Assembly: GCA_049643885.1 (NCBI GenBank)
Contig: JBARQV010000029.1
Span: 24,997-88,996 of the forward strand
Source: Candidatus Omnitrophota bacterium
GTDB taxonomy: Bacteria > Omnitrophota > Gorgyraeia > Tantalellales > Tantalellaceae
DNA length: 64,000 nucleotides
Direction of reading: 5' to 3'
Below the pieces are notes generated by a model. The model was not told where the DNA came from. It saw nothing but the letters and a program-made list of their open reading frames with translations, and did not search any database. Made by a program: the position numbers and the translations under genes. Every line of letters starts with the position of its first letter. The first letter of the stretch is position 1. Positions 12,124 through 31,209 of this stretch are shown in pieces.

Positions 12124-12652
12124 AATACTTTGAGGTCACGGCGTCCCACTTACCCTGCGCTTTCAGGAGAAAATCGCAGACTTCCCTGACAGCTCCCCGG
12201 CCGCCGTTTTTTTCCGTTACTAAATGAACGTAGGATTTGACATCGGCCATGGCATTAGGCGGGCATATCGCAAGACCCACGCGCTTCAAGACCGGGATGT
12301 CTATAACGTCATCTCCCACAAAGCAAATGGCCTCGTCGTCCACTTTGAACCTTTTTTTGATCATATTGAGGGCCTTGAACTTGTAATGAAAATTATGATA
12401 AACTTTATCGATCCTGAGGGCCCTCGCCCGGTTAATAACTGCCTGAGAAGCCTTTGCCGTAAGTATGACGCATTTCAGGCCGGCCCGCTTCACAAGGGTT
12501 ATTCCCAGGCCGTCATTGACATCAAAATTCTTAAACTCCTCCCCGTAATCACCGTACACCAGCCTGCCGTCTGTCAGGACGCCGTCCACGTCCAGTACAA
12601 GGAGTTTTATCTTCTTCGCCCGTTCTATGATCTCAGGTAGATTCTTACCCAT
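12116..12652 (-). CDS. kdsC: 3-deoxy-D-manno-octulosonate 8-phosphate phosphatase (HAD)
   Basis: 178 aa with the LVLDVDGVLTDG HAD motif, within the kds cluster. Confidence 0.85.
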   Translation of the reverse strand: MGKNLPEIIERAKKIKLLVLDVDGVLTDGRLVYGDYGEEFKNFDVNDGLGITLVKRAGLKCVILTAKASQAVINRARALRIDKVYHNFHYKFKALNMIKKRFKVDDEAICFVGDDVIDIPVLKRVGLAICPPNAMADVKSYVHLVTEKNGGRGAVREVCDFLLKAQGKWDAVTSKYFE

Positions 12653-12702
12653 TTGTAACCCTTCCTAGTATCAAAGTATCATCAAATTCTGACACCCTGA
12701 CG

Positions 12703-13662: not shown

Positions 13663-13664
13663 GG

Positions 13665-15291: not shown

Positions 15292-16295
15292 TTTTTCACC
15301 CTTCCCGTCTCTTGCTTTAATTTGCTTAAAAGCTCGCTTTTATTCACTACCGCGGTGCCGACCCTGCCGACAACGATTCCCGCGGCGCAATTCGCGATGT
15401 GAGCGGCAAGAAGAGGCGAACCGCCGCTTACGACCGACAACGCATATGTGGCAATGACGGTATCGCCTGCACCGGAAACATCAAACACTTCCTGGGCTAC
15501 CGTGGGGATCTTGTAGGGTTTTTTCTCTTTTTCAAAAAGCATCATACCTTCTTCTCCCAAGGTGATAAGGACCACATCGGACTTTAGTTTCTTGAGAAGT
15601 TTTTCTCCCGCCTTTTTTATGGCTTGATCGCTGCTAAGCGGAAAACCCACGACTTTCTCGGCTTCGTGGCGGTTAGGCGTGACTACGCTGACCTTCTTGT
15701 AATAGGAAAAATGGTTCTCTTTCGGGTCGACCGCTACAACCTTACCATGCCTCTTGGCCAGAGGTATGATCTTTCCAAGCAATGGCGCGGTAATAAGCCC
15801 TTTCCCGTAGTCTTCGATGATCAACCCGTCGATATCGTGTATCTTCTGCCTGACATGATCTTCGATCTTTCCGGCGATGTTCCAGGAAAGAGCATCGATG
15901 CTTTCCCTGTCGATCCTCACCACCTGCTGGTGATGGCCGATAACCCGGGTCTTGAGGGTGGTGGGCCTTCTCTTGTCAGAAATGACCCCGCCCGTATCGA
16001 TATTCCTTTCCTTGAGCAGGTCCATCAACTTGTCAGCCTTCTCGTCCTCACCTACGATCCCGACGATCGAGACCCGGGCGTCCAGAGCCGCCAGGTTATT
16101 GGCAACGTTACAGGCGCCGCCCGGCATGAAATCTTCTCTTTTTACCCATACCACGGGAACCGGCGCTTCAGGCGAAATGCGGGAAACCTCGCCCCAGATG
16201 AACTGGTCCAAAAGAAGGTCCCCGATCACCATAACCCTTTTCCCGGAAAACCTTTTTACAATATTCGCTAAAGTGGAATAATTAAACCGCTTCAC
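15288..16295 (-). CDS. hldE: D-glycero-beta-D-manno-heptose-7-phosphate kinase (RfaE domain I only, PfkB fold). GTG start.
   Basis: Ribokinase-like GAGD motif with RfaE1-type sequence, and no adenylyltransferase domain. The start is GTG, preceded by GGGAGGGG. Confidence 0.8.
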   Translation of the reverse strand: MKRFNYSTLANIVKRFSGKRVMVIGDLLLDQFIWGEVSRISPEAPVPVVWVKREDFMPGGACNVANNLAALDARVSIVGIVGEDEKADKLMDLLKERNIDTGGVISDKRRPTTLKTRVIGHHQQVVRIDRESIDALSWNIAGKIEDHVRQKIHDIDGLIIEDYGKGLITAPLLGKIIPLAKRHGKVVAVDPKENHFSYYKKVSVVTPNRHEAEKVVGFPLSSDQAIKKAGEKLLKKLKSDVVLITLGEEGMMLFEKEKKPYKIPTVAQEVFDVSGAGDTVIATYALSVVSGGSPLLAAHIANCAAGIVVGRVGTAVVNKSELLSKLKQETGRVKK

Positions 16296-16720: not shown

Positions 16721-17752
16721 TTATTTTTCCATTATTTTTGATACTGCCTCTACGGCATCCTCGACGGAAACCGCGCTGAGGCATTTGAAACCTTTGTCGC
16801 AATAATGCGCTAGGCATTTTTCACAGCCAACGTCTTTATGCAAAACCACGTCCCTGTCCCCCATCGGCCCCCACCTTTTCGGCGAAAGTCCTGGATCTTT
16901 CCTGCCGAATATGACAACGACCGGGGTATTCACGGCCACACTTACATGCACCGGACCGGAATCATTGGATATGAACACACTGCACCTGGAAAGAAGCTCG
17001 GCAAGTTCCCCTATCCTCAGCATCCCGGTCAGGTCCACAGCTTTGCTTCTCATGTTAGATAAGACCGACTTGCTGAACTCCTCGGTCTGGTCACCCCCGA
17101 CAATGACTATGCGGCAACCGTACTTACCGGCGAGAACATCCGCGACTTCGGCGAATCTTTCCGGCATCCACCTTTTTGAAGGACAACTGGCACCAGGGTG
17201 TATGGCAATAAGCGTCCCGTTTATGCCGGAATCCCTGAAAACCGAATCTACAAGACGCTTATCGCTTTCGGACATGGTCATATACGGCTTGCGGACCGCT
17301 CCCGAAACATCGAACCCGGCTTTTTCTAAAAGGTCAAAATTATAATCTACTTCGTGCCTTGCGCCACCCTGTTTGATGTGTCCGATCCGCCGGGTCAGCA
17401 TCCATCCCAGTTTCCGGTCGTAACCTATCCTTACCGGGATGCCGGCCAGAAGCATCATCACATGGACCCTGTTGGTCGGGTGAAGGGCTATACCGATATC
17501 GAACTTTTTCTTCCGGAGTTGCAGCGCGAATTTTACCGTGCTCCAGAAACTCTTCTGCAGTCCGTATTTATCATACAATATCACTTCGTCAAGATGGGGA
17601 TTATTAGCGACCAGATCCCTGTTTTCAGGCCTTACCATGAATGCTATGTGCGCGCCGGGAAACAACTTACGCATATGGCGTATCACTGGCGTGGAGAGAA
17701 CGACGTCCCCTAACCTGTCAGTCCTTGTGATCAATATCTTTTTCGGCTTCAT
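16721..17752 (-). CDS. ADP-heptose:LPS heptosyltransferase (GT9)
   Basis: GT9 family, as in WaaC/WaaF/WaaQ. The start is probably MMKPKKILI. The ORF track extends 21 nt into the upstream repeat, to 17773. Confidence 0.8.
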
Positions 17753-17776
17753 CATAAACTTAACATCCAGCATCCA

Positions 17777-17866
17777 GTGTGCGGGTCCTGTCGCTCAGTG
17801 CCCTGCGCGCCTCCGCGCCACTGGCTTGTGCGATGCTCGGACACTGTAGCGCCACCCGCCCCCACG
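17777..17866. repeat. GC-rich structured element, family 1 copy 1 (about 90 bp), in the 5' leader of a GT9 gene.
   Basis: About 90% identical to 19578-19665. It has an imperfect long dyad (GCGGGT...CAGTG/CACTG...ACCCGC) around an internal GCGCG-GAG-GCGCGC stem. Confidence 0.7.
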
Positions 17867-17873
17867 AATCCAA

Positions 17874-17902
17874 ATTCTAAACAATACCAAATTTCTATAC
17901 AA
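17874..17902 (-). promoter_or_regulatory. Candidate sigma-70 promoter TTGTAT-N17-TAGAAT, read on the minus strand, that would transcribe repeat copy 1 as the 5' leader of the GT9 gene.
   Basis: Hexamers and spacing read from the sequence. I have no expression evidence. Confidence 0.35.
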
Positions 17903-18069
17903 AGGTCATCAGGGAATCAGATTACCAGGAAGCAGGATTCTGGATATCAGGCAAGAATTCTTCCTAATAAACTGATCATCTGATATCCTGCCCCCTGATA
18001 CACTGTTAACCTGATATCCCATTTTATATCCAATATCCGCTATCTGTCTTCTGCCTTCTGTCTTCTGAA
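17903..18069. promoter_or_regulatory. Repeat-rich noncoding region: three CCTGATATCC/GGATATCAGG motifs, an AAGAATTCTT palindrome, and the direct repeat CAGAAGACAGA x2 when read on the minus strand.
   Basis: Seen in the sequence. A noncoding gap of about 165 bp is large for this compact region. Confidence 0.3.
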
Positions 18070-18582
18070 CTACTCACTCCTTGTCAACTCCTCGTATACT
18101 TTCAGGTACACGTGATAATCGCTTTCACTGAAACATATATACCTGATCTCGTTAAAATCTTTCTGGAACCTCAACCCTTCTTCAAGAGCTATCCACGTAG
18201 CTTTCTCTACCGGGTACCCGTACACGCCCGTGCTTATCGCCGGAAAAGCAATGGTCCTGAGGCCGTGCTTTATCGCGAGTTTAAAACTGTTTGAATAACA
18301 GTTCGCCAGACTCTCCGCCTCGCCATGTTCCCCTCCCTGCCAAACCGGACCGGGAGTATGGATCACTTTTTTAGCTTTAAGGTTTCCCGCGTTTGTGATC
18401 ACAGCATGGCCGGTGATGCAGCCCCCTATATCCATACACTCTTTGAGCAGGGGAGGACCGGCCGCCCGGTGGACCGCACCGTCGACTCCGCCTCCTCCGC
18501 GAAGACTGGTATTGGCGGCGTTAACTATCACATCAACGTCTTCTTTCGTAATATCGCCCCGCGTGATAATTATTTTGCCCAT
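18070..18582 (-). CDS. Macro domain protein (MacroD/YmdB-like ADP-ribose or O-acetyl-ADP-ribose hydrolase)
   Basis: 170 aa with NAANTSLRGGGGVDGAVHRAAG and a G(I/V)YGYP motif. Confidence 0.85.
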   Translation of the reverse strand: MGKIIITRGDITKEDVDVIVNAANTSLRGGGGVDGAVHRAAGPPLLKECMDIGGCITGHAVITNAGNLKAKKVIHTPGPVWQGGEHGEAESLANCYSNSFKLAIKHGLRTIAFPAISTGVYGYPVEKATWIALEEGLRFQKDFNEIRYICFSESDYHVYLKVYEELTRSE

Positions 18583-18583
18583 C

Positions 18584-19558
18584 TTATCCCCCCAACAGCT
18601 CTTTCGCTGCTTTAAAAACTTCCTCGACAGTAATCCGACTTATGCATCCCTCGTCGGGGCCAATAGAACATAATGCCTTCCCGCAAGGACGGCATGATAG
18701 CAATGGTTTGATGACCTTGCTTTTCTCAGATAAAGGTCCGTACCTTTCTTCGTCAGAAGGTCCGAAAATAGCTACCGTTGCAACGTTGGCCATGCTGGCC
18801 ATATGCAGCGGGGCGCTGTCGTTAGTTATAACCAGGTCGCAGCGCCTCATGATCTCAAAAAGACTGCCCAGGGTCGTCCTGCAACAAAGATCCTGCACCT
18901 TACTTTTAACGGAACTTACCACCTTCCGGACAGTTTCCCTGTCATCCTCATTTCCGCAAACCAGAACATCGCAATCAAGTTCACTCACAAGCCTGTCCGC
19001 AAGAGCGGCGAACTTACCGGAATCCCATCTTTTAAGGTGGCTCTTGGCGCCGGGATTCAAAGTCACAGTTTTCTTTTTGCGTCCGGAAGATAAAACCTGG
19101 TCAGCGAAACGCCTGTCTTCGTCCAAAACGGGGAGAAAAAACCTTATCCTGGAAAAAGGCTCGATCCCGAGCCCCGCGAGTTTCGCAAGATGTTCCTTGC
19201 TTTTATGGCGTCTTCTATTTGAAAGATCGAAAATACCCGTCCTGAAACGGGCGCCGGAAAGATACGGGATAAGTGAATTTTTCAGATCGACCACCATATC
19301 GTATTTCTTACGCCGTATTTCAAGGATATTCTTCAATCTATCTGCTAATGATGAACGTTTTTTGTGCACTTTGACCTCGCGGACCTTGGGATGCGCTGCA
19401 AATATATCCCGTCCCGGGGAACCTGTGATAATGTCAACGCTTGCCCCGGGAAACTCATCACAAAGTTTCTCCAAAACCGGAGTAGTGAGCAGGATATCGC
19501 CGAGATTGCTCAGTGTAATGAATAGAATCGATTTCACGTTGTTTTTATCGGGTTTCAT
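18584..19558 (-). CDS. ADP-heptose:LPS heptosyltransferase family glycosyltransferase (GT9)
   Basis: GT9 fold. The start is probably MKPDKNNVKSILFI. The ORF-track N-terminus (to 19675) is read-through of repeat copy 2. Confidence 0.8.
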   Translation of the reverse strand: MKPDKNNVKSILFITLSNLGDILLTTPVLEKLCDEFPGASVDIITGSPGRDIFAAHPKVREVKVHKKRSSLADRLKNILEIRRKKYDMVVDLKNSLIPYLSGARFRTGIFDLSNRRRHKSKEHLAKLAGLGIEPFSRIRFFLPVLDEDRRFADQVLSSGRKKKTVTLNPGAKSHLKRWDSGKFAALADRLVSELDCDVLVCGNEDDRETVRKVVSSVKSKVQDLCCRTTLGSLFEIMRRCDLVITNDSAPLHMASMANVATVAIFGPSDEERYGPLSEKSKVIKPLLSCRPCGKALCSIGPDEGCISRITVEEVFKAAKELLGG

Positions 19559-19577
19559 GTCTAATCCAGTCTCAATT

Positions 19578-19665
19578 GGGCGGGGCCTGTCGCTCAGTGT
19601 CCTGCGCGCCTCCGCGCCACTGGCTTGTGCGGTGCTCGGACACTGCCGCGCCACCCGCCCCCCCC
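19578..19665. repeat. GC-rich structured element, family 1 copy 2, in the 5' leader of a second GT9 gene.
   Basis: About 90% identity to 17777-17866, including the flanking TTGGAT. Confidence 0.7.
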
Positions 19666-19682
19666 AATGATCCAACTACAAA

Positions 19683-20699
19683 CTACTTTAGTACTTTTCT
19701 CACCGCGTCCAGCACTTTCTCCACCGTTATCTTTCTCATGCAAATATAATCTTTATCGCAATTCTCCACATAACAGGGCACTTCACAATCAACATCCTCG
19801 GCAATGACAATGTTACTTCCTCTTCCCCTGGGACCGGTGATATTGTAAGAGGTCGGCCCAAAAAGTCCGATGGTAGAAACACCTACAGCCGAAGCTAGAT
19901 GAAGCGGGCCGGAATCAGCGCTGATAACAAGGTCACTCTTCTTAAAAAGAACGGCCAGCTCGTTAAGTCTTGTTCTGCCGGCAGTCGTATAACATTTGTC
20001 ATTCCCGACCTTCTCTACGATATTATTACAAAGTTCGACATCTTTGGCGGCCCCCGATATCATGACTTCGACGTCTTCAAAAGAAGCCAGGATCTTTTTT
20101 GCCAGGGCAACAAAATTATCCGCGGGCCATCTCTTAGGCTCCCAGTTGGCGCCCGGGTTGATCGTCACTGTCCGGTACTGGCCTCCTCCAAGCTCATGAA
20201 GCAAGGCGTCCGCCCGCTCCCTGTCCTCGACGCTGGTGAAATATTCGTATGTACCGTCCGCCCGCGTCACGTCCGCTGGACCGGCCAGTGCCAGGATCTG
20301 GTCCACGCGGTGCAGGTTCCCTGAAGGCATTTCAACTTCTTCGGTCAACGGAGCCTTTTTCCCTGCGAACCCTATACGTTCAGGGATCCCGGCCAAAAGA
20401 GCCATTACCGTTTTTGTCGCCGAGGGTTTAAGAAAAAAACACGTATCGTAATCTTCTTTCCGGATCATGCTGATAAACGCAAGCTTCTCTCCCAATGAAG
20501 TGACGCGGTTATCATCCGAAAGCGCATGGACGCAATTTACCCAGGGGTTATTAGCCAGCAGCTCAACATACCGGGGCACTACAACGCAGGATATATAGGC
20601 ATCCGGGAATGCTTTCCTGATAGCCCGTATGAACGGAAATGAAAACAGGATATCACCCATCCAGTTAAGCTCAAAAATAAGTATCCTCTTACCGATCAT
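19683..20699 (-). CDS. ADP-heptose:LPS heptosyltransferase family glycosyltransferase (GT9)
   Basis: 338 aa of GT9 type, including a CEVPCYVENC-like C-terminal motif. Confidence 0.8.
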   Translation of the reverse strand: MIGKRILIFELNWMGDILFSFPFIRAIRKAFPDAYISCVVVPRYVELLANNPWVNCVHALSDDNRVTSLGEKLAFISMIRKEDYDTCFFLKPSATKTVMALLAGIPERIGFAGKKAPLTEEVEMPSGNLHRVDQILALAGPADVTRADGTYEYFTSVEDRERADALLHELGGGQYRTVTINPGANWEPKRWPADNFVALAKKILASFEDVEVMISGAAKDVELCNNIVEKVGNDKCYTTAGRTRLNELAVLFKKSDLVISADSGPLHLASAVGVSTIGLFGPTSYNITGPRGRGSNIVIAEDVDCEVPCYVENCDKDYICMRKITVEKVLDAVRKVLK

Positions 20700-20715
20700 A
20701 ACCGATTTCTAATTT

Positions 20716-21819
20716 CTATTTTGTAACTACTTTCTCATACACATTGATCGTCTTCCTCACGCTGTCTTCTATCGAAAATTCGCTCAACGCCTTTTTGCGC
20801 GCTTCCTGCCCGATCCGTTTCCGGAGCTGGTCGTCTTCCGCCAGTCTCATTATACCCCGGCTTAAAGCCTCCGGGTCCTTCGGCGGAACCAATATCCCGT
20901 CCTCTTCCGGAGTGATCAGTTCAACCGGTCCGCCGATACTACTGGCAACGCAAGCCCGGCCGGCAGCCATGGCTTCCATCAGCGATAGTCCCAGCCCCTC
21001 GGATACGGAAGGCAAGCAAAAAATATCCATAAGTAATAAAAATTTTCCCAGCGGCGCTTCTTTTCCACTGGCAAAAAATACATTATCGGAGACGCCTTCG
21101 CGCAAGACTTGCTCTTCCAGAGACGCTTTTTCAGGCCCCTCCCCCACGAGAAGAAGCTGCATCCGTGAATCCCTGTCCATCGCCTTTTTAAAAGCACTGA
21201 CAAGATAATTCAACCCCTTCACAGGGGAAAGCCGTCCGACCGCTCCCACCAGAAGAACTTCCTTTGACAACCCGATGTTCCTTAAAAGCCTGTCGTCTTT
21301 TTCGCCGATATCTGAATAACGGCCTGTTTCTACGCCGTTATATACCAGTTGGACCCTGTCGCCGGGAAGACGAAAATCCCCGATAAGATGCTTGCGCACG
21401 CTATCACTTATGGCTATCACTTTCCGTCCCCAGCACGGGAAAAGCTTTCTTCCCAGCCTGTGGTGTTTGAAAAAACCGTGGCATGTTGAGATAAAAGGAA
21501 CGCCGGTTTTACGCTCCACGAGGCAGCCAAGAACCTGCGCGACCCTGGTCTGCGCGTGGACAATATCGAACCCCTCCGCTTTCACCATTCGGGATAAAAG
21601 ATGAGAAGCCTTCCAGACCTTCAAGCCGAATTCAGACTTGGTCTTTATGTCTAGGGTCAGGTGGGGAATGATGTTATCCACTAATACCTTTTTCATGTCC
21701 CCGCCGCCGGATGCGACGGTTACATCCACTCCAGCCTTTTTCAGATACCTGGCCAGGCTCACGGTGTAAACGGCTATGCCGCCGGTATTCAAATGCGTGG
21801 TCAGAAGCAATACCTTCAT
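20716..21819 (-). CDS. Glycosyltransferase family 4 (RfaG/WaaG-like)
   Basis: 367 aa, GT4 GT-B fold, with an EGLGLSLMEAMAAG motif. Confidence 0.8.
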   Translation of the reverse strand: MKVLLLTTHLNTGGIAVYTVSLARYLKKAGVDVTVASGGGDMKKVLVDNIIPHLTLDIKTKSEFGLKVWKASHLLSRMVKAEGFDIVHAQTRVAQVLGCLVERKTGVPFISTCHGFFKHHRLGRKLFPCWGRKVIAISDSVRKHLIGDFRLPGDRVQLVYNGVETGRYSDIGEKDDRLLRNIGLSKEVLLVGAVGRLSPVKGLNYLVSAFKKAMDRDSRMQLLLVGEGPEKASLEEQVLREGVSDNVFFASGKEAPLGKFLLLMDIFCLPSVSEGLGLSLMEAMAAGRACVASSIGGPVELITPEEDGILVPPKDPEALSRGIMRLAEDDQLRKRIGQEARKKALSEFSIEDSVRKTINVYEKVVTK

Positions 21820-23909
21820 CTCATCACTTCCATTACCGCGTTAAAAACTTCCTGCGGCTCAACTGAACTTATACACTTCACTCCCTTGCGGCACACCGGC
21901 TTGTAACAGGGCGAGCACTTTATCTTTTTATATATGACCCTGCATTTTTTCGCCGGCGGGAGGTGCTTGTCAGGATCAGTCGGACCGAAAATGGCCACGA
22001 ACGGCGTCCCGGTCGCTATCGCGACATGCATGGGAGAACTGTCACCTGTCACCAGCGCGTTGCACCGTTTAACAAGACTCACCAGCCGCGCAATATTCGT
22101 CTTGCCCACGGCGTTGATGGGTTTGGCCGTGGTCATCTTCATGAATTCCTGCGCTTTCCTCTCATCGTCTTTTGTCCCGAGAAGGACGACCCGCGTCCCT
22201 TCCTTCTCGGCAAGAAGTTCTGTCAGCTCTACCATCTTTTCCGGTTCCCAGTTCTTCGTCTTCCACCTTCGACTGGCGGAAAGACTGAGGGCTACCAGCT
22301 TCTGGTCTTTTTTTAGCCAGTTATCTCTCAAGAAACTTTCCGCCCAGACCCCGCTTTTGCTGTCTTCCCATAACTCGAGATCATGTTCCAGGTTCATTAT
22401 GCCCAAAAGCCCCAAAACGCGGGCCTGATGTTTTATCGGTTCCACCGACTTATCAGGCAGGCTGATCTTATGATTCAAAAGAAAACTCAGCTTACGGTTA
22501 TCATACCCATATCTTCCGGGGATGCCGCTCAAAAAAGCCAGCAAATGGCTTTTCCGGTTATTCTGCAGATCTATGGAGATATCGAATTCTTCCGAGCACA
22601 ACCTTCTGGCCAGGGCCAGGAACCCGGGGCCCCGGTCCCGTCCCCTGAAATCACAGGTCAGAACATCGTCTATGTACGGACAATGATCGAGGACCTCCCT
22701 GAACCTGACATCTACCAGGACTTTTATCTCGGCTTTCTTGAATTTGTTCCTCATGGCTTTGAGCGAAGGAATACTCAGGATCACGTCTCCGAGGGCGCTT
22801 ATCTTGAACACAAGTATTCTCTTTGTCTCCAGGACCTGTCTATACGTCTCCAGGGTCATGTCCATTACTTTGGATAATGAAAAATTTTCCTCGACGCGTT
22901 TCCTGGCATTCTGGGCTATTTTCTGCATCAGCCCGGGATCATCCAGGTAACCCATGATCTTTTCCGCCATATCACTCGGGTTGCCTGGTTCGCATAAAAG
23001 GCCGGTAACGCCGTCATCAATGTTCTCCGCCGCGCCGCCGACCCGGGTAGCGACAACCGGGACTCCTCTGGCCATGGCTTCTATTATCGACCGGCCGAAT
23101 GCTTCCTGCTCCTTGTTCGCTGAAACAAGGATGTCGACTTCCTTAAGGACCTCTGCCACGTCTTTGCCGCTTTCAATGAACTTTACGTTCCCTTCAAGCG
23201 TAAAACGCCGTATGGCAAAGTCGATCTTCTTCATGTAATCACTGCCGGCAGAATACCGGTCCCCCATAAGTATTATTTCGACGTTGTTCTTCTTCCTTAA
23301 AACACGGGAAGCAGCCTTCAGGAAGTCAAGGTGCCCTTTCAGCGGGACAAAACGTGATATCATGGCTACCCGGAAAACCTTGTCTTTTCTGCTTGAGGGA
23401 GAGATGAAAGAATACTTTTCCAGGTCCACTCCTCTCGGAATGATCTTCATCTTCCCCGGCTGGACACCAAAATTATCTTTCATGTGCCGGGCCATCATTT
23501 CGCCGGCCACGATGACTACCCTGCCCCATCCCATCACCCGGCTGATAAGATGCTTCTTGTAATGCCCGTGCGCAGTGGTCACGAACTTCCTCCGCGTGGA
23601 ACGAGCGGCAAAATACCCGGTAAGGGCGGGAATCCTGCTCCTAGCATGGACTATATCGATATTCTCCCGCCTGATTATTCCGCGTAATTTAAAATAGCAA
23701 TAGACCATGGTGAAAGGATTCTTGCGGCCTACCGGCAGAATATACTGCCGCGCGCCGATGGCGGCAAGATCCCGTTCCAATCTTCCTCCCCCGGAAACGA
23801 CCACGGCCTTATGGCCGTTTAATGCGAGGTGCCTGGCGACTTCGACAGTGCTCTTCTCAACACCGCCGATATCCAGTTTTGGAACTAATTGTAATACGTT
23901 CATAGCCAT
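21816..23909 (-). CDS. Bifunctional glycosyltransferase: N-terminal GT4 domain fused to a C-terminal GT9 heptosyltransferase-like domain.
   Basis: 697 aa. Residues 1 to about 350 are GT4-like (EAFGRSIIEAMARGVPVV). Residues from about 355 to 697 are GT9-like (ILVFKISALGDVILSIP ... CSPCYKPVC). Confidence 0.75.
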   Translation of the reverse strand: MAMNVLQLVPKLDIGGVEKSTVEVARHLALNGHKAVVVSGGGRLERDLAAIGARQYILPVGRKNPFTMVYCYFKLRGIIRRENIDIVHARSRIPALTGYFAARSTRRKFVTTAHGHYKKHLISRVMGWGRVVIVAGEMMARHMKDNFGVQPGKMKIIPRGVDLEKYSFISPSSRKDKVFRVAMISRFVPLKGHLDFLKAASRVLRKKNNVEIILMGDRYSAGSDYMKKIDFAIRRFTLEGNVKFIESGKDVAEVLKEVDILVSANKEQEAFGRSIIEAMARGVPVVATRVGGAAENIDDGVTGLLCEPGNPSDMAEKIMGYLDDPGLMQKIAQNARKRVEENFSLSKVMDMTLETYRQVLETKRILVFKISALGDVILSIPSLKAMRNKFKKAEIKVLVDVRFREVLDHCPYIDDVLTCDFRGRDRGPGFLALARRLCSEEFDISIDLQNNRKSHLLAFLSGIPGRYGYDNRKLSFLLNHKISLPDKSVEPIKHQARVLGLLGIMNLEHDLELWEDSKSGVWAESFLRDNWLKKDQKLVALSLSASRRWKTKNWEPEKMVELTELLAEKEGTRVVLLGTKDDERKAQEFMKMTTAKPINAVGKTNIARLVSLVKRCNALVTGDSSPMHVAIATGTPFVAIFGPTDPDKHLPPAKKCRVIYKKIKCSPCYKPVCRKGVKCISSVEPQEVFNAVMEVMR

Positions 23910-23960: not shown

Positions 23961-25901
23961 TCAAAATAGTTTGTACATTTTTTCCAGAATACGTTTGTCG
24001 TCTTCCGGCAAAACGTGTTCGATCTTGCCATTAATATAATTTTCCGCCGCTTCGGGTATACGCTCGGGATCGACGACTTTAAGATACTTCTTCTTCTCAA
24101 GACCCCTGACAAACCTTTCGTACTTTGTCAGGCGGCTCTTTTTCTTGTCCGGCATGAACACCAGAACCGGCTTACCGGAAGAGACGGCTTCCGAGACCAT
24201 TGAAATACTCTCACCCGAAACAACTACCACGTCGCTGAAAGCAAGTATCTTTTCCACGGTGTGCTTGTCCGGGTCATCCTTACCGGAAACAAACTTTAGA
24301 CAACGGGGGTAACCTCCGAAAGTTTCCTTGATAACAGCCTCGGCCGCGTCAGGTGTTCTCCTGGAGGTCGTCACGTAAAAAAACCCGTCCACCCGTTCGC
24401 CTGCTCCTTTGATGCCAGAGACCACCGAGCGCATAAGCCCTTCCCCGAAACTGAAATACTGATTGTCTCCTCCGAGCAGCACCCCTATGCGCGCTCCCTC
24501 CTTCGCTTCTTGCTCTTGCCCGGACCGGGTGCCCCATGAAGCGATCTCATCGGGCTCAATGGAATTCGGAGCAAGGTCCGTCATAATGACATTCTCTCCC
24601 TTGATCTTCCTGGCAAGACAATCGTGCCTGGGGATCACTACAAGGTCGAATTTCCTGCGGCTCCAGGCCCCGGGATCCAGGACAGCAAGGTTACGGGCGT
24701 TGTTTTCTATCTTCAAGAACAGATTCACTCCGGACAAGGTCGAACCGCAGCTGATAACGACATCCGCGTAACGGCCCACCGCCTCCTCGTAGCTTTTTCT
24801 TTCCAGAAACCAGGAAAGACGTCTTGCCTCGCCCTGGCAATCAAAGGTAAAAAGCGGATTCAAAAGATTGAACACGGCCTTGGCGAACTTGTTCTTGAAT
24901 CTGATCTCGACGATATCCACCTGGGTCTGGTCGGGTGAAAAACCTTCGTTTTCGCGATAACGCTTAAGCTGCTTTACCACCGCGAGAGACTGTTTCAGGT
25001 GCCCTTTCTTTCCGTCATCGAGGACCAGTATCTTTTTCACTGGGGTAAGCTTCCACTTCTTATGCATCCAGAACCATTGCTCCGGATGTTCTCTGACGTG
25101 CTTTTCAAGAAGACGGTGGTATTCTTCCATATAAGGCACAATGTCTTCTTTTTTGCCTATTATCATCGGTTTTTCCAGGATTATCTTTTGATATGGGCCT
25201 TTGATCCTGTGAATAAAAGCCGGTACGACCCAGGCCCCGCTTGACTGGGCGAAACGGAAAGGACCCACGGCAGTTGACGCGGGACGGTCGAAAAGTTCCA
25301 AAAGTTTACCGTTTTGGCCTGCATTCTGGTCTCCCAATAACCCCACGCCGCCTCCATTTCGCAGGATACGGAAAACATTTTTTATATCCATACCTTTCCG
25401 AATAACAAAATTGCCTTTTGACTCGCGCAATAAGTTAAAAAGCTCATTAAGGCGTTTCATCTTCTGATCCCTTGCCACAAGATGAAGTGGATACCCGTTC
25501 ATCACGCTTTCCACGCACATCAGCTCCCAGTTACCAAAATGCGCAGAAATTAGCAGCATCCCGTTCGGGTTTTTTGCCGCCTGATCAATATACTCCCTGT
25601 TTTGAGTTTCGATGTATTTGTCAAGATAAGCTTTATCCACTTTCGTCATTGAAATCAATTCAATCAAAGTCTGGCCCGCGTTCCTGTAAACTTCCTTTGT
25701 AAGGCGTTTTATTTCCAGCGGGCTTTTCCCCCGCCAAAAAGCAGCCTTGAGATTGGCATAAGTTATTCTTTTCCTTTTGCCGTTCAGGTAATACGCAAGA
25801 TTTCCGAGGTTGCGTCCAACCCAAAGGTTAAACCTCATCGGCATCAGATGAAAAATTTTATTAGCCCCTATCGCCAGATATGACGCTATTAAGTCTATCA
25901 A
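23961..25901 (-). CDS. Lipid A late acyltransferase (LpxL/HtrB family, N-terminal about 300 aa) fused to an uncharacterised C-terminal domain of about 340 aa, possibly a GT-B-like ELM1/DUF1022-like domain.
   Basis: The N-terminal half has the LpxL hallmarks HFGNWE and EQWFWMHKKWK. The C-terminal half begins ILVLDDGKKGHLKQSLAVV, has Rossmann-like segments (VVVVSGESISMVSEAVSSGKPVLVF) and no P-loop. The ELM1-like assignment is from memory, so its confidence is moderate. Confidence 0.65.
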   Translation of the reverse strand: MIDLIASYLAIGANKIFHLMPMRFNLWVGRNLGNLAYYLNGKRKRITYANLKAAFWRGKSPLEIKRLTKEVYRNAGQTLIELISMTKVDKAYLDKYIETQNREYIDQAAKNPNGMLLISAHFGNWELMCVESVMNGYPLHLVARDQKMKRLNELFNLLRESKGNFVIRKGMDIKNVFRILRNGGGVGLLGDQNAGQNGKLLELFDRPASTAVGPFRFAQSSGAWVVPAFIHRIKGPYQKIILEKPMIIGKKEDIVPYMEEYHRLLEKHVREHPEQWFWMHKKWKLTPVKKILVLDDGKKGHLKQSLAVVKQLKRYRENEGFSPDQTQVDIVEIRFKNKFAKAVFNLLNPLFTFDCQGEARRLSWFLERKSYEEAVGRYADVVISCGSTLSGVNLFLKIENNARNLAVLDPGAWSRRKFDLVVIPRHDCLARKIKGENVIMTDLAPNSIEPDEIASWGTRSGQEQEAKEGARIGVLLGGDNQYFSFGEGLMRSVVSGIKGAGERVDGFFYVTTSRRTPDAAEAVIKETFGGYPRCLKFVSGKDDPDKHTVEKILAFSDVVVVSGESISMVSEAVSSGKPVLVFMPDKKKSRLTKYERFVRGLEKKKYLKVVDPERIPEAAENYINGKIEHVLPEDDKRILEKMYKLF

Positions 25902-26916
25902 CTAAAGCCTCCTTGCCTTCGACAATATCCATCTCGATGTCCAAAACGAGCAATCTTTCTTCGATAGCTGAAAGGTCTAATGCCCGCATTTTTACATAAT
26001 CCTTTTTTGTGGTGACTATGCTGTCGATCCCGCTGTTGCGGCAATCGGCGCTGATCCTGTCGATATCTTTCTGATTATAACTATGATGGTCGGCATAATC
26101 ATGCCGCAGGACCGGCAATGCCCCGAGATCCTCTACGGCGCGGACAAAATATCCAGGGTCCGCTATGCCGCTTATCAGGCATGCTTTCTGTCCTTTCAGG
26201 GTTTCCGCGGAATAGACCGCCCCCGTCACATCGTTCAGAAAGGTCGGCCTGTGCCTGGCAGTAACGATCAGCTTCCCCGGAAAGCTGTTCTGCAGCTTCC
26301 GGATGATATCATTTTTCCCCTTATCGTCCATCTTATCTATTTTCGACAAGACCAGGATATCAGCCCGCTTTAAAGAAGATACCGGCTCCCTCAATATCCC
26401 CCTGGGGAAAAGATACCCATCACCGAAAACCGAACCGCTGTCAAGCATCACGATACTCAGGTCTCGGCCGATCCTCCGGTGCTGGAACCCGTCATCAAGA
26501 ACGAGAATGTCTCTTCCGTCCCTGGCGGCCGCTAAAGCACTGGCCACCCTGTCCTGTCCCGAGAAAACCGGCACTTCCGGCATCTCGTCTCGGAGCATCC
26601 TTCTCTCGTCATCCCCGTATCCTCTTATAAGCACAGCGGGCTTTTTTCCGGAAGACGAAAGATAATTCGCAAGAAATATCGTAAAGGGAGTCTTGCCGGT
26701 CCCGCCCAGGGTGATATTGCCCACACTGATGACGGGGATATTTTTTATCTTGTGAACGCGCCTTAACCCTGACCGGTAAGCCCAGTCCACGATCCTTATC
26801 GCCAGAGCATAGACCCAGGACAAGACGCGCAGCACTGACCTTAAAAGTGCGGCGACAAAACCCTTCTTCTGGCCCCTCATGACAGACAGCATGTACATTT
26901 TAAATGCGGAACTCAT
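25861..26916 (-). CDS. lpxK: Tetraacyldisaccharide 4'-kinase
   Basis: P-loop VGNITLGGTGKTP with an N-terminal membrane helix. Confidence 0.85.
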   Translation of the reverse strand: MSSAFKMYMLSVMRGQKKGFVAALLRSVLRVLSWVYALAIRIVDWAYRSGLRRVHKIKNIPVISVGNITLGGTGKTPFTIFLANYLSSSGKKPAVLIRGYGDDERRMLRDEMPEVPVFSGQDRVASALAAARDGRDILVLDDGFQHRRIGRDLSIVMLDSGSVFGDGYLFPRGILREPVSSLKRADILVLSKIDKMDDKGKNDIIRKLQNSFPGKLIVTARHRPTFLNDVTGAVYSAETLKGQKACLISGIADPGYFVRAVEDLGALPVLRHDYADHHSYNQKDIDRISADCRNSGIDSIVTTKKDYVKMRALDLSAIEERLLVLDIEMDIVEGKEALVDRLNSVISGDRG

Positions 26917-28184
26917 GACAGGTATTTTCCTATTTTGTCCATGGTCTTTTCGAGCGCCCCGGAATTTTGATCGATGATCTTTTTTGCGTTGACGGACATA
27001 TTTTCCCTTTTATCCGTGTCTTCCAAGAGGTCCTCCAGCACTGATTTTAGTTCATTCTTGTCTTTTACGGCTACCGCACCGCCGCCTTCGGTGAATATGC
27101 CCGCTACTTCCCTGAAATTGAACATGTGAGGCCCGAAAACCACGGCCTTTCCCCACCGGGCTCCCTCGATCGGGTTCTGCCCTCCTTTTCTGGCCAGGCT
27201 GCCTCCCACGAAGATCAGGGTAGCGACGCTATAGATATCCTTAAGGTGTCCGATCGTATCCACAAGGATGACATCTTTACCCGGGGGCCGTATCTTCTTG
27301 CCGGATAAGATATCCGAAAAACGCTGGTACCCGATACCGGCTTTTTCGATATATGATCCTACAGTGTCCACTCTCTCGATGTGCCTGGGAGCAAGGACCA
27401 GCTTCAGGCCGCTCCGTTTCTTCCTGAGTTCCCTGTAAACGTCGACTATCGTTTCCTCCTCCGGAGAATGGGTGCTGCCCGCAACAAGGATCTCGTCTTT
27501 CTCGCCGAAACCGAAATCCTCCTTCCGGAACGCGCCTGATACCGGGAAATCGCCTGTCTGGTCGAACTTGATATTCCCGGTCACAAAAACTTTTTCCGCA
27601 GGGGCGCCCAGCTGCTTTATCCTCAGGGCGTCTTTTTCCGACTGCATGCAGAAACGCTCTACGTCCTTCAGTATCCGCCTGGTAATAAACCCTATTCTTC
27701 TGTAATTCACGAAAGAAGAATCGGATATCCTGCCGTTCACAAGGACCACCGGAACACCTCTTGAAGATAACTCTTCCAGAAGATTAGGCCATAGTTCCGT
27801 CTCTACCATCAGGTAAAGGCGGGGGTCGATACTCCTGACGACCCGGGACACCACGGCCCTAAAATCGACAGGGAAATAAAAAACCGCGTCTACCGCTCCG
27901 GGCTTGAATTTGCGGGCCATATCATTGCCTGTCCTGGTCGTGGTCGAGATTACTACAGGCACGCCCGGGAAACGCTTTTTGATCACTCCTGAAAGTTTTC
28001 CCGCCAGGGCCGCCTCCCCGACGCTTACCGCGTGTATCCACACGGGTCTCTCAAGACCCGTAACTTCGTCAGGCAAAAACGAGAACCTCTGTAAAAAATC
28101 TTTATGTGCCTTCCTCTTGACCAGTAGATAAGGCAGGTAAACAACGCTGAAAATTAGAAAAAATAGATCGTATATGAGTCTCAT
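26913..28184 (-). CDS. waaA: 3-deoxy-D-manno-octulosonic acid (Kdo) transferase
   Basis: 423 aa, KdtA family. Confidence 0.9.
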   Translation of the reverse strand: MRLIYDLFFLIFSVVYLPYLLVKRKAHKDFLQRFSFLPDEVTGLERPVWIHAVSVGEAALAGKLSGVIKKRFPGVPVVISTTTRTGNDMARKFKPGAVDAVFYFPVDFRAVVSRVVRSIDPRLYLMVETELWPNLLEELSSRGVPVVLVNGRISDSSFVNYRRIGFITRRILKDVERFCMQSEKDALRIKQLGAPAEKVFVTGNIKFDQTGDFPVSGAFRKEDFGFGEKDEILVAGSTHSPEEETIVDVYRELRKKRSGLKLVLAPRHIERVDTVGSYIEKAGIGYQRFSDILSGKKIRPPGKDVILVDTIGHLKDIYSVATLIFVGGSLARKGGQNPIEGARWGKAVVFGPHMFNFREVAGIFTEGGGAVAVKDKNELKSVLEDLLEDTDKRENMSVNAKKIIDQNSGALEKTMDKIGKYLS

Positions 28185-28264: not shown

Positions 28265-29137
28265 TCATGCTCTGGGGTGCGCCTTAATATACATCTCCTT
28301 GATCTTTTGCGTTCCAAGATGCGTGTAGATCTGCGTGGTCGACAGATTCTTATGTCCCAACAGTTCTTGGACGCTTCTCAGGTCGGCTCCGTTATTAAGC
28401 AAATGGGTCGCGAAAGAATGCCGGATCGAATGGGGGGATATTTTCTGTTCTATACTGCACTGCCGTATATATTTGTCCACAATACGACGGACGCTCCTGT
28501 CCGTAAGCCGGGTCCCCAATTTGTTCAGGAAAAGCGCGTTTGGCTTATGATGACCGGCCCGCTGTCTTTCCTTCATATAGCCGTCAAGTGCGCGCTGGGC
28601 CTCCTTCCCCAGCAGGGTAATCCTTTCTTTTTTCCCTTTTCCCCTGACCTTAGCCACGCCGGATATGTGGTCGACATCCTCCTGATTCAGGCCGACCAGC
28701 TCGCTTACCCGCATGCCCGTTGAATACAATATCTCCAAGATAGCCCTGTCCCTCAAGCTTTTGATGTCATCCCCGGCCGGGGCCGTTATAAGTCTTATGA
28801 TCTTCTCGGAATCAAGAAATTCCGGAAGTTTCTTGTCAAGTTTAGGAGTAAAAACACTGTCGGTCGGGTTGGTCTTTATATATTTTTCCCTGGAAAGGAA
28901 ACGGAAGAAAGACCGTATAGCCCCGAGCTTCCTCACCACCGTGCGCTTGGCGTATTTTTTCTGCTTGAGTTCAGCCAGATAACGTCTCAGGTGAAGGTGC
29001 GTTACGCTTTTGGGGCCCTTGTTCTGCAAAAAAAGGGCCAGTTCTTTCAGGTCTGACCTGTAGCATCTCACGGTGTGTTCCGAGTAATTTTTCTCTATCT
29101 TCAGGTAGTTCGAGAATTTCTCGATGAAGCGTTCCAT
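28265..29137 (-). CDS. Tyrosine recombinase XerC/XerD
   Basis: 290 aa with the conserved recombinase residues (R...HxxR...Y). Confidence 0.85.
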   Translation of the reverse strand: MERFIEKFSNYLKIEKNYSEHTVRCYRSDLKELALFLQNKGPKSVTHLHLRRYLAELKQKKYAKRTVVRKLGAIRSFFRFLSREKYIKTNPTDSVFTPKLDKKLPEFLDSEKIIRLITAPAGDDIKSLRDRAILEILYSTGMRVSELVGLNQEDVDHISGVAKVRGKGKKERITLLGKEAQRALDGYMKERQRAGHHKPNALFLNKLGTRLTDRSVRRIVDKYIRQCSIEQKISPHSIRHSFATHLLNNGADLRSVQELLGHKNLSTTQIYTHLGTQKIKEMYIKAHPRA

Positions 29138-29139
29138 CT

Positions 29140-31209
29140 TTAATCTTCTTTATCCTCCGCCGCGCCCGTGTTGCTCTCAAGCTCTTCGACGTCCCGGGGG
29201 AGCTTCTTGGAGGTATATGTACATTTCGGATACTTGGTGCACCCGTAAAAATTACCTCTCCTTGACTTGCGTTCGACTAATTCGCCGCCACACCCTTCTA
29301 TCGGGCATGGTACACCGGTCGTTATGGGTTCAGCGTACCTGCATGACGGAAAACCGGAACAACTCAGGAACTTGCCGCGGGACCCCCATTTAATGACCAT
29401 TTTCCTGCCGCATTTCTTGCAGGTCTTGTCGGTCTCTATGGCCTGCTTCTTCACGCTCTTCATTTTTTCTTTCGCCGTTTCCATCTGATCCTTGAACGAA
29501 GAGTAAAACTCATCCATTACCTTTTCCCATTGCATCTTCCCTTCTTCGATCTCGTCCAGTTCGTTCTCCATATTCGCGGTAAAGGCTACGCCGATGATAT
29601 CGGGGAAATTCTCCACAAGCAGGGCGTTGACCAGTTCACCCAGCTCGGTGGGATGAAAATACCGGCTGACGCGTTTGACATAATTGCGATTGATGATAGT
29701 CCTTATAATAGGGGCGTAAGTCGACGGACGGCCTATGCCTTTTTCCTCGAGAATCTTGACCAGGGAAGCATCCGAATAACGCGGAGGCGGCTTGGTAAAA
29801 CACTGCTGCGGTTTCAACTCCACAAGATCCACCACTTCTCCGGTTTCGAGCGGCGGTATCGGGAGCATCTCCTCCTGCTGTTTCCTGTCCCCGGCGTAAA
29901 CCCGCAGAAAACCGTCGAATATAAGAGTCCCCCCTCCGGCCCTGAACCTGTATTCGCCGGCGTCGATATTTATCGTCAAAACGTTGTACACCGCGCTTTC
30001 CATCTGACTGGAAACGAACCTCTTCCATATCAGGCTATATAGTTTGAATTCATCCGGGCTCAAATATTTCTCAACCTGGCTGGGATCACGCAGGGGCAGG
30101 GTGGGCCTGATCGCCTCATGGGCCTCCTGCGCGCTCTTTCTGGATTTATATTTCACCGGCGATTTGGGCAGGTATTTATCCCCGTACTCGTTCTGGATAT
30201 GCTGGCGGAGCTCCTTCAGGGCGTCTCCGGATACGCGAACGGAGTCGGTACGCATGTAAGTAATAAGACCCACGCTGCCTTCTTCGCCCAGTTCGATGCC
30301 TTCATAAAGTTCCTGAGCTATCTTCATGGTCTTGCTGGCGGAAAAATTCAGTTTATTGAACGCGTCCTGCTGCAAGAGCGAAGTGGTATAAGGCGAACGG
30401 GGATAACTCTTTTTTTCTTTTTCCGATATATCTTTTATTACATACTTTTCCTTCTCAAGCTCGGAAAGGACCTTATCCGCGATCTTTTTGTCGGAGATAT
30501 GTATTTTCTCACCCTTGTGTTTCACAAGCTTGGAGATGAATGTCCTTTCCTCCTCCGGAAGCGGGCCGCCTTTCTTTCTTAACAGCGCTTCTATGTTCCA
30601 GTATTCCTGGGACTTGAACTTGCGTATCTCCTCTTCTCTTTCGACGATCAACCTGACGGCCACGGACTGGACCCTGCCGGCGCTCAGTCCCCTGGTGATC
30701 TTGGACCACAACAGCGGGCTGAGAGAGTACCCTACGATCCTGTCAAGGACCCTTCTGGCCTGCTGGGCGTTGACTTTGTTCATGTCCAGCGGCGCCGGAT
30801 GCTCAAAAGCTTCCCGCACGGCTTTTTCAGTGATCTCTTCAAAACTTACACGGGACATCTCGGCGCCCTCCTTCTGGAGCTGATTGCTGATATGCCAGCA
30901 AATAGCCTCTCCTTCACGGTCGGGGTCGGCGGCCAGGTATATGGCCTTGGTCCCTTTTGCGTCTTTTTTCAAATTGCTTAAATATTTATTCCGGCCTTTG
31001 ATAATGACATATTCAGGCTTGAATTCGTTATCAAAATCGATGCCCATCCGGTCTGGAGGAAGATCCACAATATGACCCATACTGGCCACGACTTTATAAT
31101 CTTTCCCCAGGATCTTATTGATGGTCTTCGCCTTTGCCGGTGATTCGACGATCACCAGGTATTTAACTCCGGATGTTTCCATTTTTTTCTTGCTCTTCTT
31201 GGTCGGCAT
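29140..31209 (-). CDS. topA: DNA topoisomerase I with C-terminal zinc ribbons
   Basis: 689 aa with a TOPRIM N-terminus (LVIVESPAKAKTI) and a C4 zinc ribbon. Confidence 0.9.
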   Translation of the reverse strand: MPTKKSKKKMETSGVKYLVIVESPAKAKTINKILGKDYKVVASMGHIVDLPPDRMGIDFDNEFKPEYVIIKGRNKYLSNLKKDAKGTKAIYLAADPDREGEAICWHISNQLQKEGAEMSRVSFEEITEKAVREAFEHPAPLDMNKVNAQQARRVLDRIVGYSLSPLLWSKITRGLSAGRVQSVAVRLIVEREEEIRKFKSQEYWNIEALLRKKGGPLPEEERTFISKLVKHKGEKIHISDKKIADKVLSELEKEKYVIKDISEKEKKSYPRSPYTTSLLQQDAFNKLNFSASKTMKIAQELYEGIELGEEGSVGLITYMRTDSVRVSGDALKELRQHIQNEYGDKYLPKSPVKYKSRKSAQEAHEAIRPTLPLRDPSQVEKYLSPDEFKLYSLIWKRFVSSQMESAVYNVLTINIDAGEYRFRAGGGTLIFDGFLRVYAGDRKQQEEMLPIPPLETGEVVDLVELKPQQCFTKPPPRYSDASLVKILEEKGIGRPSTYAPIIRTIINRNYVKRVSRYFHPTELGELVNALLVENFPDIIGVAFTANMENELDEIEEGKMQWEKVMDEFYSSFKDQMETAKEKMKSVKKQAIETDKTCKKCGRKMVIKWGSRGKFLSCSGFPSCRYAEPITTGVPCPIEGCGGELVERKSRRGNFYGCTKYPKCTYTSKKLPRDVEELESNTGAAEDKED

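Follow-up and report, generated by a model that had tools for sequence, protein, structure and literature searches.

An LpxL-type acyltransferase fused to an ELM1/KdoT-family glycosyltransferase domain in the lipid A gene clusters of Omnitrophota

The closest described system for the C-terminal half of the protein studied here is KdoT of Acinetobacter baumannii (also GtrOC1, A1S_2903), a PF06258 protein that acts as a CMP-Kdo:Kdo2-lipid IVA Kdo transferase (VanOtterloo, Voss, Trent, JBC 2025, PMC12856342). The in vitro proof that KdoT attaches a third Kdo, donated by CMP-Kdo, to Kdo2-lipid IVA dates from December 2025 (PMC12856342) and overturned the view of WaaA as the only builder of the Kdo region. 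The purified enzyme suffices for catalysis in vitro, is inactive on lipid IVA and prefers a tetra-acylated substrate. In A. baumannii the third Kdo is placed at O5 of Kdo I, the position taken by heptose in enteric bacteria. Mutagenesis shows that R180 of the SRRT motif is needed for activity, and that the D8A, H13A, H109A and D110A mutants are still active (PMC12856342). A distant Rickettsia homolog complements KdoT. Acinetobacter also has other outer-core paralogs in PF06258 (GtrOC14, 19 and 22), and Kdo may therefore not be the donor for every member of the family. The Pfam name of the family derives from plant ELM1, an adaptor of the outer mitochondrial membrane for dynamin-related proteins without a known glycosyltransferase role. 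For the N-terminal half, the described counterparts are the late lipid A acyltransferases LpxL, LpxM and LpxP (PF03279; LpxM is PDB 5KN7).

The window, meaning the whole 64-kb stretch of DNA that was analysed, places the gene encoding both halves between a cluster of GT4 and GT9 glycosyltransferase genes on one side and lpxK and waaA on the other, as a reading of the sequence alone had described. The main features of the locus are as follows.

9032-9919, a second LpxL paralog, standalone
16721-23909, the GT4/GT9 cluster
21816-23909, minus strand, a GT4::GT9 fusion gene of 697 aa (Pfam GT4 and GT9), the conserved downstream neighbour
23961-25901, minus strand, the lpxL::kdoT-like (LpxL::ELM1) gene, 646 aa plus a TGA stop, one uninterrupted open reading frame
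25861-26916, minus strand, lpxK (tetraacyldisaccharide 4'-kinase), which adjoins and overlaps the fused gene on its upstream side (PF02606, E 1.2e-73; TIGR00682 above cut-off)
26913-28184, minus strand, waaA (Kdo transferase, GT30), two genes upstream of the fusion (PF04413, E 1.2e-58; NCBIfam PRK05749 models)

The gene order topA-xerC-waaA-lpxK-lpxL::ELM1-GT4::GT9-GT4-GT9 is constant, and in almost every related locus the gene that carries ELM1 is followed by the GT4::GT9 gene. The locus holds four GT9 (heptosyltransferase-family) domains. The operon that contains waaA and lpxK also includes kdsA, kdsB, kdsD and a kdsC-like gene, so that CMP-Kdo synthesis is encoded alongside the fusion. No lpxB was found within the 64-kb window.

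The coordinates given for the gene by the sequence-only reading match a single 646-aa reading frame of the minus strand exactly, and a Pfam search finds PF03279 and PF06258 in that one frame. A protein identical to the 646-aa fusion (P0001) is present in public assemblies. The same reading had put an overlap with lpxK of about 40 nt down to the use of the first ATG. The overlap is real (41 nt), but it arises from a TTG codon at 25901; the first ATG, at 25844 (residue 20), lies 16 nt past the lpxK stop. The TTG is the better-supported start, judged from the sequence, because a Shine-Dalgarno-like AAGGAGG stands at a spacing of 6 nt and because residues 1-19 of the protein are kept among homologs, with D3 in at least 90%. 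The signals and domains of the fused gene are listed below.

25908-25914, minus strand, Shine-Dalgarno-like AAGGAGG, 6 nt from the TTG, read from the sequence
25899-25901, minus strand, TTG start codon, giving the 41-nt overlap with the end of lpxK
25038-25901, minus strand, LpxL/LpxM-type late lipid A acyltransferase domain, residues 1-288 (PF03279)
25524-25541, minus strand, HFGNWE, the H-x4-(D/E) catalytic motif with H121 and E126, invariant in 46 homologs
23964-25037, minus strand, ELM1/GtrOC1/KdoT-family GT-B glycosyltransferase domain, residues 289-646
24999-25019, minus strand, DDGKKGH, past the first β-strand; D296 and H301 align with KdoT D8 and H13
24621-24632, minus strand, PRHD; H426 and D427 align with KdoT H109 and D110
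24354-24365, minus strand, SRRT (S513-T516), equivalent to KdoT S178-T181, with R515 as KdoT R180
24186-24218, minus strand, SGESISMVSEA, the helix start of the C-terminal Rossmann lobe, aligned by BLASTP with KdoT TEDSVSMVFEA

The motifs that had been quoted from the translation are all present: HFGNWE at residues 121-126, EQWFWMHKKWK at 274-284 and ILVLDDGKKGHLKQSLAVV at 291-309.

The N-terminal half belongs to the late acyltransferases, as had been proposed for the first 300 residues or so. PF03279 (Lip_A_acyltrans) matches residues 7-284 with an E value of 4.5e-45 and 154.5 bits against a cut-off of 22.3, covering positions 16-294 of the 295 in the profile, and the invariant H121-x4-E126 lies within this match. 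In Foldseek comparisons the predicted model of this half resembles A. baumannii LpxM (5KN7/5KNK; E 3-5e-11, target TM-score 0.65-0.68) and PatA (target TM-score up to 0.84). The half thus resembles LpxL, LpxM and LpxP in its near-full profile match, its H-x4-E motif and its fold, but the protein differs from them in carrying a C-terminal extension of 358 aa and in scoring under the equivalog cut-offs. All 17 NCBIfam matches to LpxL, LpxM or LpxP equivalogs fall below their cut-offs, the best being NF006270 with 135.3 bits against 248, and for this reason the acyl chain and its position are not assignable.

The C-terminal half had been likened in the sequence-only reading to ELM1/DUF1022, and the search of residues 300-646 with profile HMMs that it recommended does return this family: PF06258 (Mito_fiss_Elm1) matches residues 300-611 with an E value of 5.4e-47 and 160.8 bits against a cut-off of 27, over profile positions 2-279 of 304. 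The full-length model of the fusion has a pLDDT of 88.8 and a pTM of 0.85. In it the C-terminal half is predicted to have a GT-B fold, with two Rossmann-like lobes and a cleft, and the Foldseek matches are GT-B enzymes, in keeping with the Rossmann or GT-B-like segments noted earlier. Inspection of the sequence of this half found no Walker-type P-loop, also as noted, and the WaaA profile PF04413 (Glycos_transf_N, GT30) has no match in the fused protein. One Foldseek match, the Rickettsia africae glycosyltransferase 7MI0, is a generic GT-B match rather than a relative, since sequence searches of the PDB with the domain alone and with a 20-sequence profile yielded no related solved structure. 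The description of the half as a domain of unknown function no longer holds at the level of the family, of which KdoT is a characterised member.

The comparison with KdoT was made with a sequence taken from chromosome-sized A. baumannii records in PLSDB, whose identity was checked by the neighbouring ilvE and by the published residue numbers (D8, H13, H109, D110, S178-T181); each of the OCL1-type records searched has one PF06258 locus. By BLASTP the two domains align end to end with 25% identity over 305 columns (E 5e-13), and KdoT scores 119 bits against an HMM of 93 Omnitrophota-type domains. All eight named residues of KdoT (D8, H13, H109, D110, S178, R179, R180 and T181) are identical in the window protein. 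Among the 93 ELM1 domains, SRR is invariant in every architecture and T516 is present in 92; H426 is found in 93 of 93 and D427 in 92 of 93, while S565, M568, S570 and E571 are found in all. SGESISMVSEA is a putative nucleotide-sugar donor site by analogy with the general architecture of GT-B enzymes. The conserved equivalents of D8, H13, H109 and D110 are no proof of catalysis, because the corresponding KdoT mutants are still active. The two proteins share the PF06258 family, the GT-B fold, the ES-SM-EA helix motif and a position in a gene cluster for LPS core or lipid A. However, KdoT is a standalone protein of 296 aa encoded beside ilvE in an outer-core locus, whereas the window domain is fused behind LpxL and has some 60 additional residues, with inserts around 340-375 and 455-470. 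The locus here is rich in heptosyltransferases, while Acinetobacter lacks heptose.

These comparisons make it fairly probable that the protein is a bifunctional enzyme, in which LpxL-type acylation of the WaaA product is combined with a further glycosylation of that product, by Kdo from CMP-Kdo. The earlier suggestion of lipid A acylation joined to a possible sugar-transferring domain is supported by both family memberships, the GT-B fold and the homology with KdoT. Both enzyme families are known; their combination in one protein is unreported, and it does not amount to a new type of enzyme. The fusion would work at the cytoplasmic face of the inner membrane during lipopolysaccharide assembly. 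Its N-terminal 288 residues, through H121 and E126, would place an acyl chain onto the Kdo-substituted lipid IVA made by WaaA. The C-terminal 358 residues would bind CMP-Kdo in the C-terminal lobe, with R515 positioning the Kdo carboxylate, and would add a further sugar, probably Kdo by analogy with KdoT, to the same Kdo2-lipid IVA acceptor. WaaA, which is also a GT-B enzyme and would likewise transfer from CMP-Kdo to a lipid A-based acceptor, would then not complete the Kdo region by itself. In the order of reactions that we infer, both steps follow WaaA, so that two enzymes with a common lipid acceptor would be joined in one polypeptide at 1:1 stoichiometry. The fusion may also tether the ELM1 domain to a membrane-associated partner and favour channelling, since this domain lacks its own anchor and starts at its first β-strand like the standalone KdoT. 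The membrane-anchor part of this rationale is weak, because the predicted helix of residues 2-19 is only moderately hydrophobic (mean Kyte-Doolittle 1.31, against 1.9 in the standalone LpxL paralog). Since the locus has four GT9 domains and O5 of Kdo I is the heptose position in enteric bacteria, either the acceptor position would differ from that in Acinetobacter or the core would be built differently.

The choice of Kdo as the donor sugar is where the proposal meets its strongest rival. The ELM1 domain might transfer another sugar, such as a hexose, hexuronic acid or heptose, to the Kdo region or lipid A, and so not be an orthologue of KdoT. The identity of only about 25%, the GtrOC14, 19 and 22 paralogs and the SRRT motif, which is family-wide and therefore does not discriminate donors, all leave room for this. 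We nevertheless regard it as unlikely, if by no means negligible: the sole characterised member of the family uses CMP-Kdo, the distant Rickettsia homolog can replace KdoT, all 93 domains keep the arginine with a proposed role in binding the Kdo carboxylate, and the genes for CMP-Kdo synthesis share the operon. In addition, action at the Kdo2-lipid IVA stage would be consistent with the fusion of the domain to LpxL or, in some relatives, to LpxK.

It is improbable that the domain is non-catalytic and instead scaffolds or gates the enzymes of lipid A assembly in the manner of an adaptor or a regulatory module. The adaptor function of plant ELM1 in recruiting dynamin-related proteins, the activity of the four KdoT mutants in candidate catalytic bases and an 'assistive' role raised in mBio 2024, before the biochemistry of KdoT, could be cited for it. 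However, purified KdoT catalyses the reaction alone, and the predicted donor-site motifs GG, SRRT and ES-SM-SEA are invariant or nearly so in the 93 domains, the pattern of an active enzyme. Even less credible is an alternative lipid A disaccharide synthase, analogous to LpxB, which was raised by the LpxK fusions (LpxK takes the step after LpxB) and which the shared GT-B fold and the lack of lpxB in the window might favour; the half neither matches the PF02684 (GT19) profile nor has its closest structural similarity to LpxB. Structure prediction and Foldseek, which the sequence-only reading had recommended while naming an LpxB match as a possible refutation, thus give a GT-B domain other than LpxB. 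In Oryzomonas, moreover, a standalone ELM1 copy follows lpxL-lpxA-lpxB, and the replacement of LpxB is rejected on all three grounds.

The fusion itself is real, old and phylum-wide in Omnitrophota. Both domains occur together in more than 120 sequence clusters at 90% identity and in 112 of 148 representatives at 50% identity, and the LpxL::ELM1 architecture is found in 71 of the 83 genome loci. The two halves are conserved among homologs, with mean identities of 60% and 50%. A sequencing, assembly or gene-calling artefact, or a frameshift joining two adjacent genes, is scarcely conceivable, since hundreds of independent assemblies from varied sources share the same continuous frame and a conserved five-residue junction of fixed length, and since the one locus with the halves as separate open reading frames (L010) owes this to a single in-frame stop within the ELM1 domain. 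L010, the sole apparent split among the orthologous loci, is thereby ruled out as a natural two-gene arrangement. Several 'standalone' ELM1 representatives of about 350-380 aa are truncated fusions that start with the C-terminal LpxL motif (…YLWxYKxWK…), and genuine standalone forms are few (Oryzomonas and a Planctomycetota MAG).

In seven loci ELM1 is fused to LpxK instead of LpxL (for example P0136, P0239 and locus L035 on chromosome CP070837.1). The domain is again C-terminal, with waaA upstream and GT4::GT9 downstream, but its partner is the 4'-kinase and not the acyltransferase. These forms are nested within LpxL::ELM1 in a rough NJ tree and appear to have arisen at least two times. A broader reading, which is doubtful and put forward tentatively, is that Omnitrophota physically link the extension of the inner core with late lipid A assembly through an obligatory module with ELM1 at the C-terminus of LpxL or, secondarily, LpxK; because of the four GT9 domains, the sugar or linkage may differ from Kdo III of Acinetobacter. 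If so, acylation and extra glycosylation of Kdo2-lipid IVA would reside on one enzyme, with an undescribed inner-core chemistry and a built-in checkpoint of LPS maturation in ultra-small bacteria.

The KdoT family, hitherto documented in Acinetobacter and Rickettsia only, now extends to an uncultured phylum. The LpxL and LpxK fusions supply independent genomic evidence of the Rosetta-stone type that KdoT-type enzymes act at the Kdo2-lipid IVA stage beside late acylation, and this agrees with the finding that KdoT prefers a tetra-acylated substrate in vitro. For structural studies of this family, which has no solved structure, the fusion is in addition a ready-made natural construct on a single polypeptide. 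The current annotations each describe one part of the protein: NCBI naming covers the ELM1 half only, and JGI naming covers the LpxL half only.

The gene at 23961-25901 on the minus strand is a single open reading frame of 646 amino acids, located at exactly the coordinates proposed by the sequence-only reading, and the motifs named there lie at residues 121-126 (HFGNWE), 274-284 (EQWFWMHKKWK) and 291-309 (ILVLDDGKKGHLKQSLAVV). A Pfam search of the protein places Lip_A_acyltrans (PF03279) on residues 7-284 (E 4.5e-45) and Mito_fiss_Elm1 (PF06258) on residues 300-611 (E 5.4e-47); the two matches do not overlap and both are far above their gathering scores. Since Pfam assigns PF06258 to the C-terminal half, its proposed identity as an ELM1/DUF1022 domain was right. 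By sequence comparison, the LpxL half is a family member without a specific equivalog assignment. The N-terminal helix of the fused protein is only moderately hydrophobic, which makes a membrane anchor there less certain. The G+C content is ~0.43-0.48 in the LpxL half versus ~0.50-0.55 in the ELM1 half. The genes of the region all run on the minus strand:

29140-31209, minus strand, topA
28265-29137, minus strand, xerC-like recombinase gene
26913-28184, minus strand, waaA
25861-26916, minus strand, lpxK
23961-25901, minus strand, the fused gene lpxL::ELM1
21816-23909, minus strand, GT4::GT9 fusion gene (697 aa)
20716-21819, minus strand, GT4 gene
19683-20699, minus strand, GT9 gene
18584-19675, minus strand, GT9 gene
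18070-18582, minus strand, Macro-domain gene (PF01661, E 2.7e-43)
16721-17773, minus strand, GT9 gene
15288-16295, minus strand, PfkB kinase gene
12116-15291, minus strand, kdsB, kdsA, kdsD and a kdsC-like gene

The order topA, xerC, waaA, lpxK, lpxL::ELM1, GT4::GT9, GT4, GT9, GT9 is repeated in related loci. The proposed overlap of about 40 nt with lpxK exists (41 nt), but it arises from a TTG start at 25901 and not from the first ATG, which lies at 25844, 16 nt past the lpxK stop. The TTG is the likely start codon, as AAGGAGG stands upstream of it with a 6-nt spacer and residues 1-19 are kept in homologs.

A word-indexed search gave 378 homologs of the fused protein. Both Pfam domains are present in each of the 120 top-ranking clusters (one identical in sequence, the others at 42-77% identity), and the named clusters among these are nearly all Candidatus Omnitrophota. 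An exhaustive HMMER search with the C-terminal domain alone gave 2542 relatives; among the top 148 representatives, taken at 50% identity, 112 have both domains. Scanning species-representative genomes revealed at least 582 related loci, the best 80 of which all bear the label Omnitrophota or 'uncultured Planctomycetia'. These 80, with three loci fetched separately, make a set of 83, in which the few 'ELM1-only' cases are mostly cut by contig ends and seven carry LpxK::ELM1. The same LpxL::ELM1 fusion as in the window is found in 71 of them, and the junction (…WMHKRWK-x-TP-x-KK-ILVLDDGKKGH…) is conserved and fixed in length. Mean identities to the window protein are 60% and 50% for the two halves. 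A frameshift or assembly artefact, the explanation against which the earlier reading had cautioned, is excluded by the shared frame of the homologs, the fixed-length junction and the conservation of both halves. The sole apparent split of lpxL and ELM1, in the Omnitrophota-type MAG locus L010, is one in-frame stop inside the ELM1 domain (~6040-6055, just past a DDGRRGHLKQS motif) in an otherwise intact frame, which could reflect a pseudogene, an assembly error or recoding.

The characterised relative of the C-terminal domain is GtrOC1 of A. baumannii, a Mito_fiss_Elm1 protein encoded beside ilvE, in a family that has other paralogs (PMC4172580). When the gene is deleted, a Kdo2 core remains (PMC10936431). 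The protein received the name KdoT in December 2025, in a study that showed it to move Kdo from CMP-Kdo to Kdo2-lipid IVA in vitro; a tetra-acylated acceptor was preferred over a hexa-acylated one, and lipid IVA was not used. An SRRT motif occurs in all homologs examined, its R180 is required, and the mutant is complemented by a homolog from Rickettsia (PMC12856342). That study names homologs from Acinetobacter and Rickettsia only and does not mention fusions (PMC12856342). The KdoT sequence was taken from chromosome-sized A. baumannii records in PLSDB. The retrieved gene (296 aa, immediately following ilvE) bears the annotation 'nucleoside-diphosphate sugar epimerase' and has D8, H13, H109, D110 and S178-R179-R180-T181, matching the published positions. 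KdoT aligns over its full length with the window domain (25% identity, E 5e-13), scores 119 bits against an HMM built on 93 domains, and shares the same amino acid with the window protein at all eight named positions (D296, H301, H426, D427, S513-T516). Across the 93 domains, which span all architectures, SRR, H426, GG477-478, S565, M568, S570 and E571 are invariant, and position 516 is T in 92. KdoT stands alone and starts directly at the first beta-strand, where the ELM1 domain of the fusion likewise starts. The A. baumannii source records, of 0.56-4.1 Mb, are filed as plasmids yet carry chromosomal ilvE and the OC locus (CP040041.1 83000-83890, where the epimerase annotation persists; NZ_CP104448.1; NZ_CP077849.1; NZ_CP064203.1).

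The LpxK::ELM1 proteins (~700 aa; L002, L024, L029, L030, L035, L036 and L043, one of them on a complete 1.55-Mb Omnitrophota chromosome) replace the lpxK / lpxL::ELM1 pair; all seven loci have the neighbouring genes seen around LpxL::ELM1, and their flanks, covered for 6-8 kb on each side, contain no lpxL. Six of the seven cluster in a single clade within the LpxL::ELM1 forms of a rough NJ tree, and the seventh lies elsewhere. This placement suggests an LpxL::ELM1 ancestor and at least two losses of the LpxL module. A genuine standalone gene of the ELM1/KdoT family lies directly behind lpxL-lpxA-lpxB in Oryzomonas sp. (Geobacterales; L003 8001-9125, GCA_031292255.1). In the same rough tree its closest company is a copy labelled Planctomycetota and two other standalone copies, in a group adjacent to the clade holding the window protein. 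Genes for an Rce1-like protease, several GT2 and GT4 glycosyltransferases and an ArnT/PMT-like protein lie downstream of the Oryzomonas copy. The LpxK fusions and the Oryzomonas copy show that the ELM1 domain is persistently linked to late cytoplasmic lipid A assembly and coexists with LpxB.

WaaA would supply Kdo2-lipid IVA. E. coli LpxL needs the Kdo disaccharide on its acceptor in the Raetz pathway. KdoT needs Kdo2-lipid IVA and favours the acceptor prior to late acylation (PMC12856342). Given these two requirements, the LpxL and ELM1 domains would act on one common acceptor at one point of the pathway. Fusion would co-localise them in fixed stoichiometry and tether the ELM1 domain, which itself lacks an anchor, to a partner associated with the membrane; we infer this to be the rationale of the fusion. 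Both partners, LpxL and LpxK, are enzymes with an anchor at the N terminus, and in fusions with either the ELM1 domain invariably forms the C-terminal part. The donor sugar is probably Kdo, judging by the single characterised homolog (25% identity); the acceptor position probably differs from Acinetobacter's O5 of Kdo I, considering the heptosyltransferase-rich context. The architecture and family assignment carry high confidence; that the protein is a bifunctional LpxL-type acyltransferase and KdoT-type, probably Kdo, transferase is the reading favoured on balance. The original observation is confirmed and its interpretation supported, with corrections.

The searchable literature contains no description of the LpxL::ELM1 combination, and public names cover one half only ('ELM1/GtrOC1 family putative glycosyltransferase' at NCBI, 'KDO2-lipid IV(A) lauroyltransferase' at JGI). 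Both halves are members of known families; the fusion chiefly provides independent genomic support for the split Kdo-transfer pathway and a wide phylogenetic extension of it, of interest to LPS specialists.

In almost every related Omnitrophota locus the gene that carries the ELM1 domain is followed by the GT4::GT9 gene; in the window copy the GT4 domain is N-terminal and the C-terminal GT9 domain exceeds the heptosyltransferase II equivalog cut-off. KdoT in A. baumannii is functionally coupled to the GT4 enzyme GnaT/LpsB, and by analogy the GT4 half might perform the next step after the KdoT-like domain. The Macro-domain gene is embedded among the GT9 heptosyltransferase genes, and the related locus L001 has a thioredoxin gene in the corresponding part, after the third GT9. 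Further genes of the window are:

9032-9919, minus strand, second LpxL paralog, a standalone acyltransferase of 295 aa with HFGNWE (PF03279, E 6.4e-56)
8169-9071, minus strand, LptC (PF06835) and LptA/LptD_N (PF03968) domains in one 300-aa protein
7435-8157, lptB, after the LptC/LptA-type gene
6783-7328, hpf, after lptB

With the standalone LpxL paralog in addition to the LpxL half of the fusion, the organism has two late acyltransferases. The paralog, whose N-terminal helix is clearly hydrophobic, adjoins the lpt genes and overlaps the start of the lptC-like gene, itself a possible further fusion in the LPS pathway. All family-matched ORFs in those parts of the window that were sampled are on the minus strand, and GC skew is negative in every interval of the profiled 20-30 kb stretch, which points to a long co-directional stretch on one replichore.
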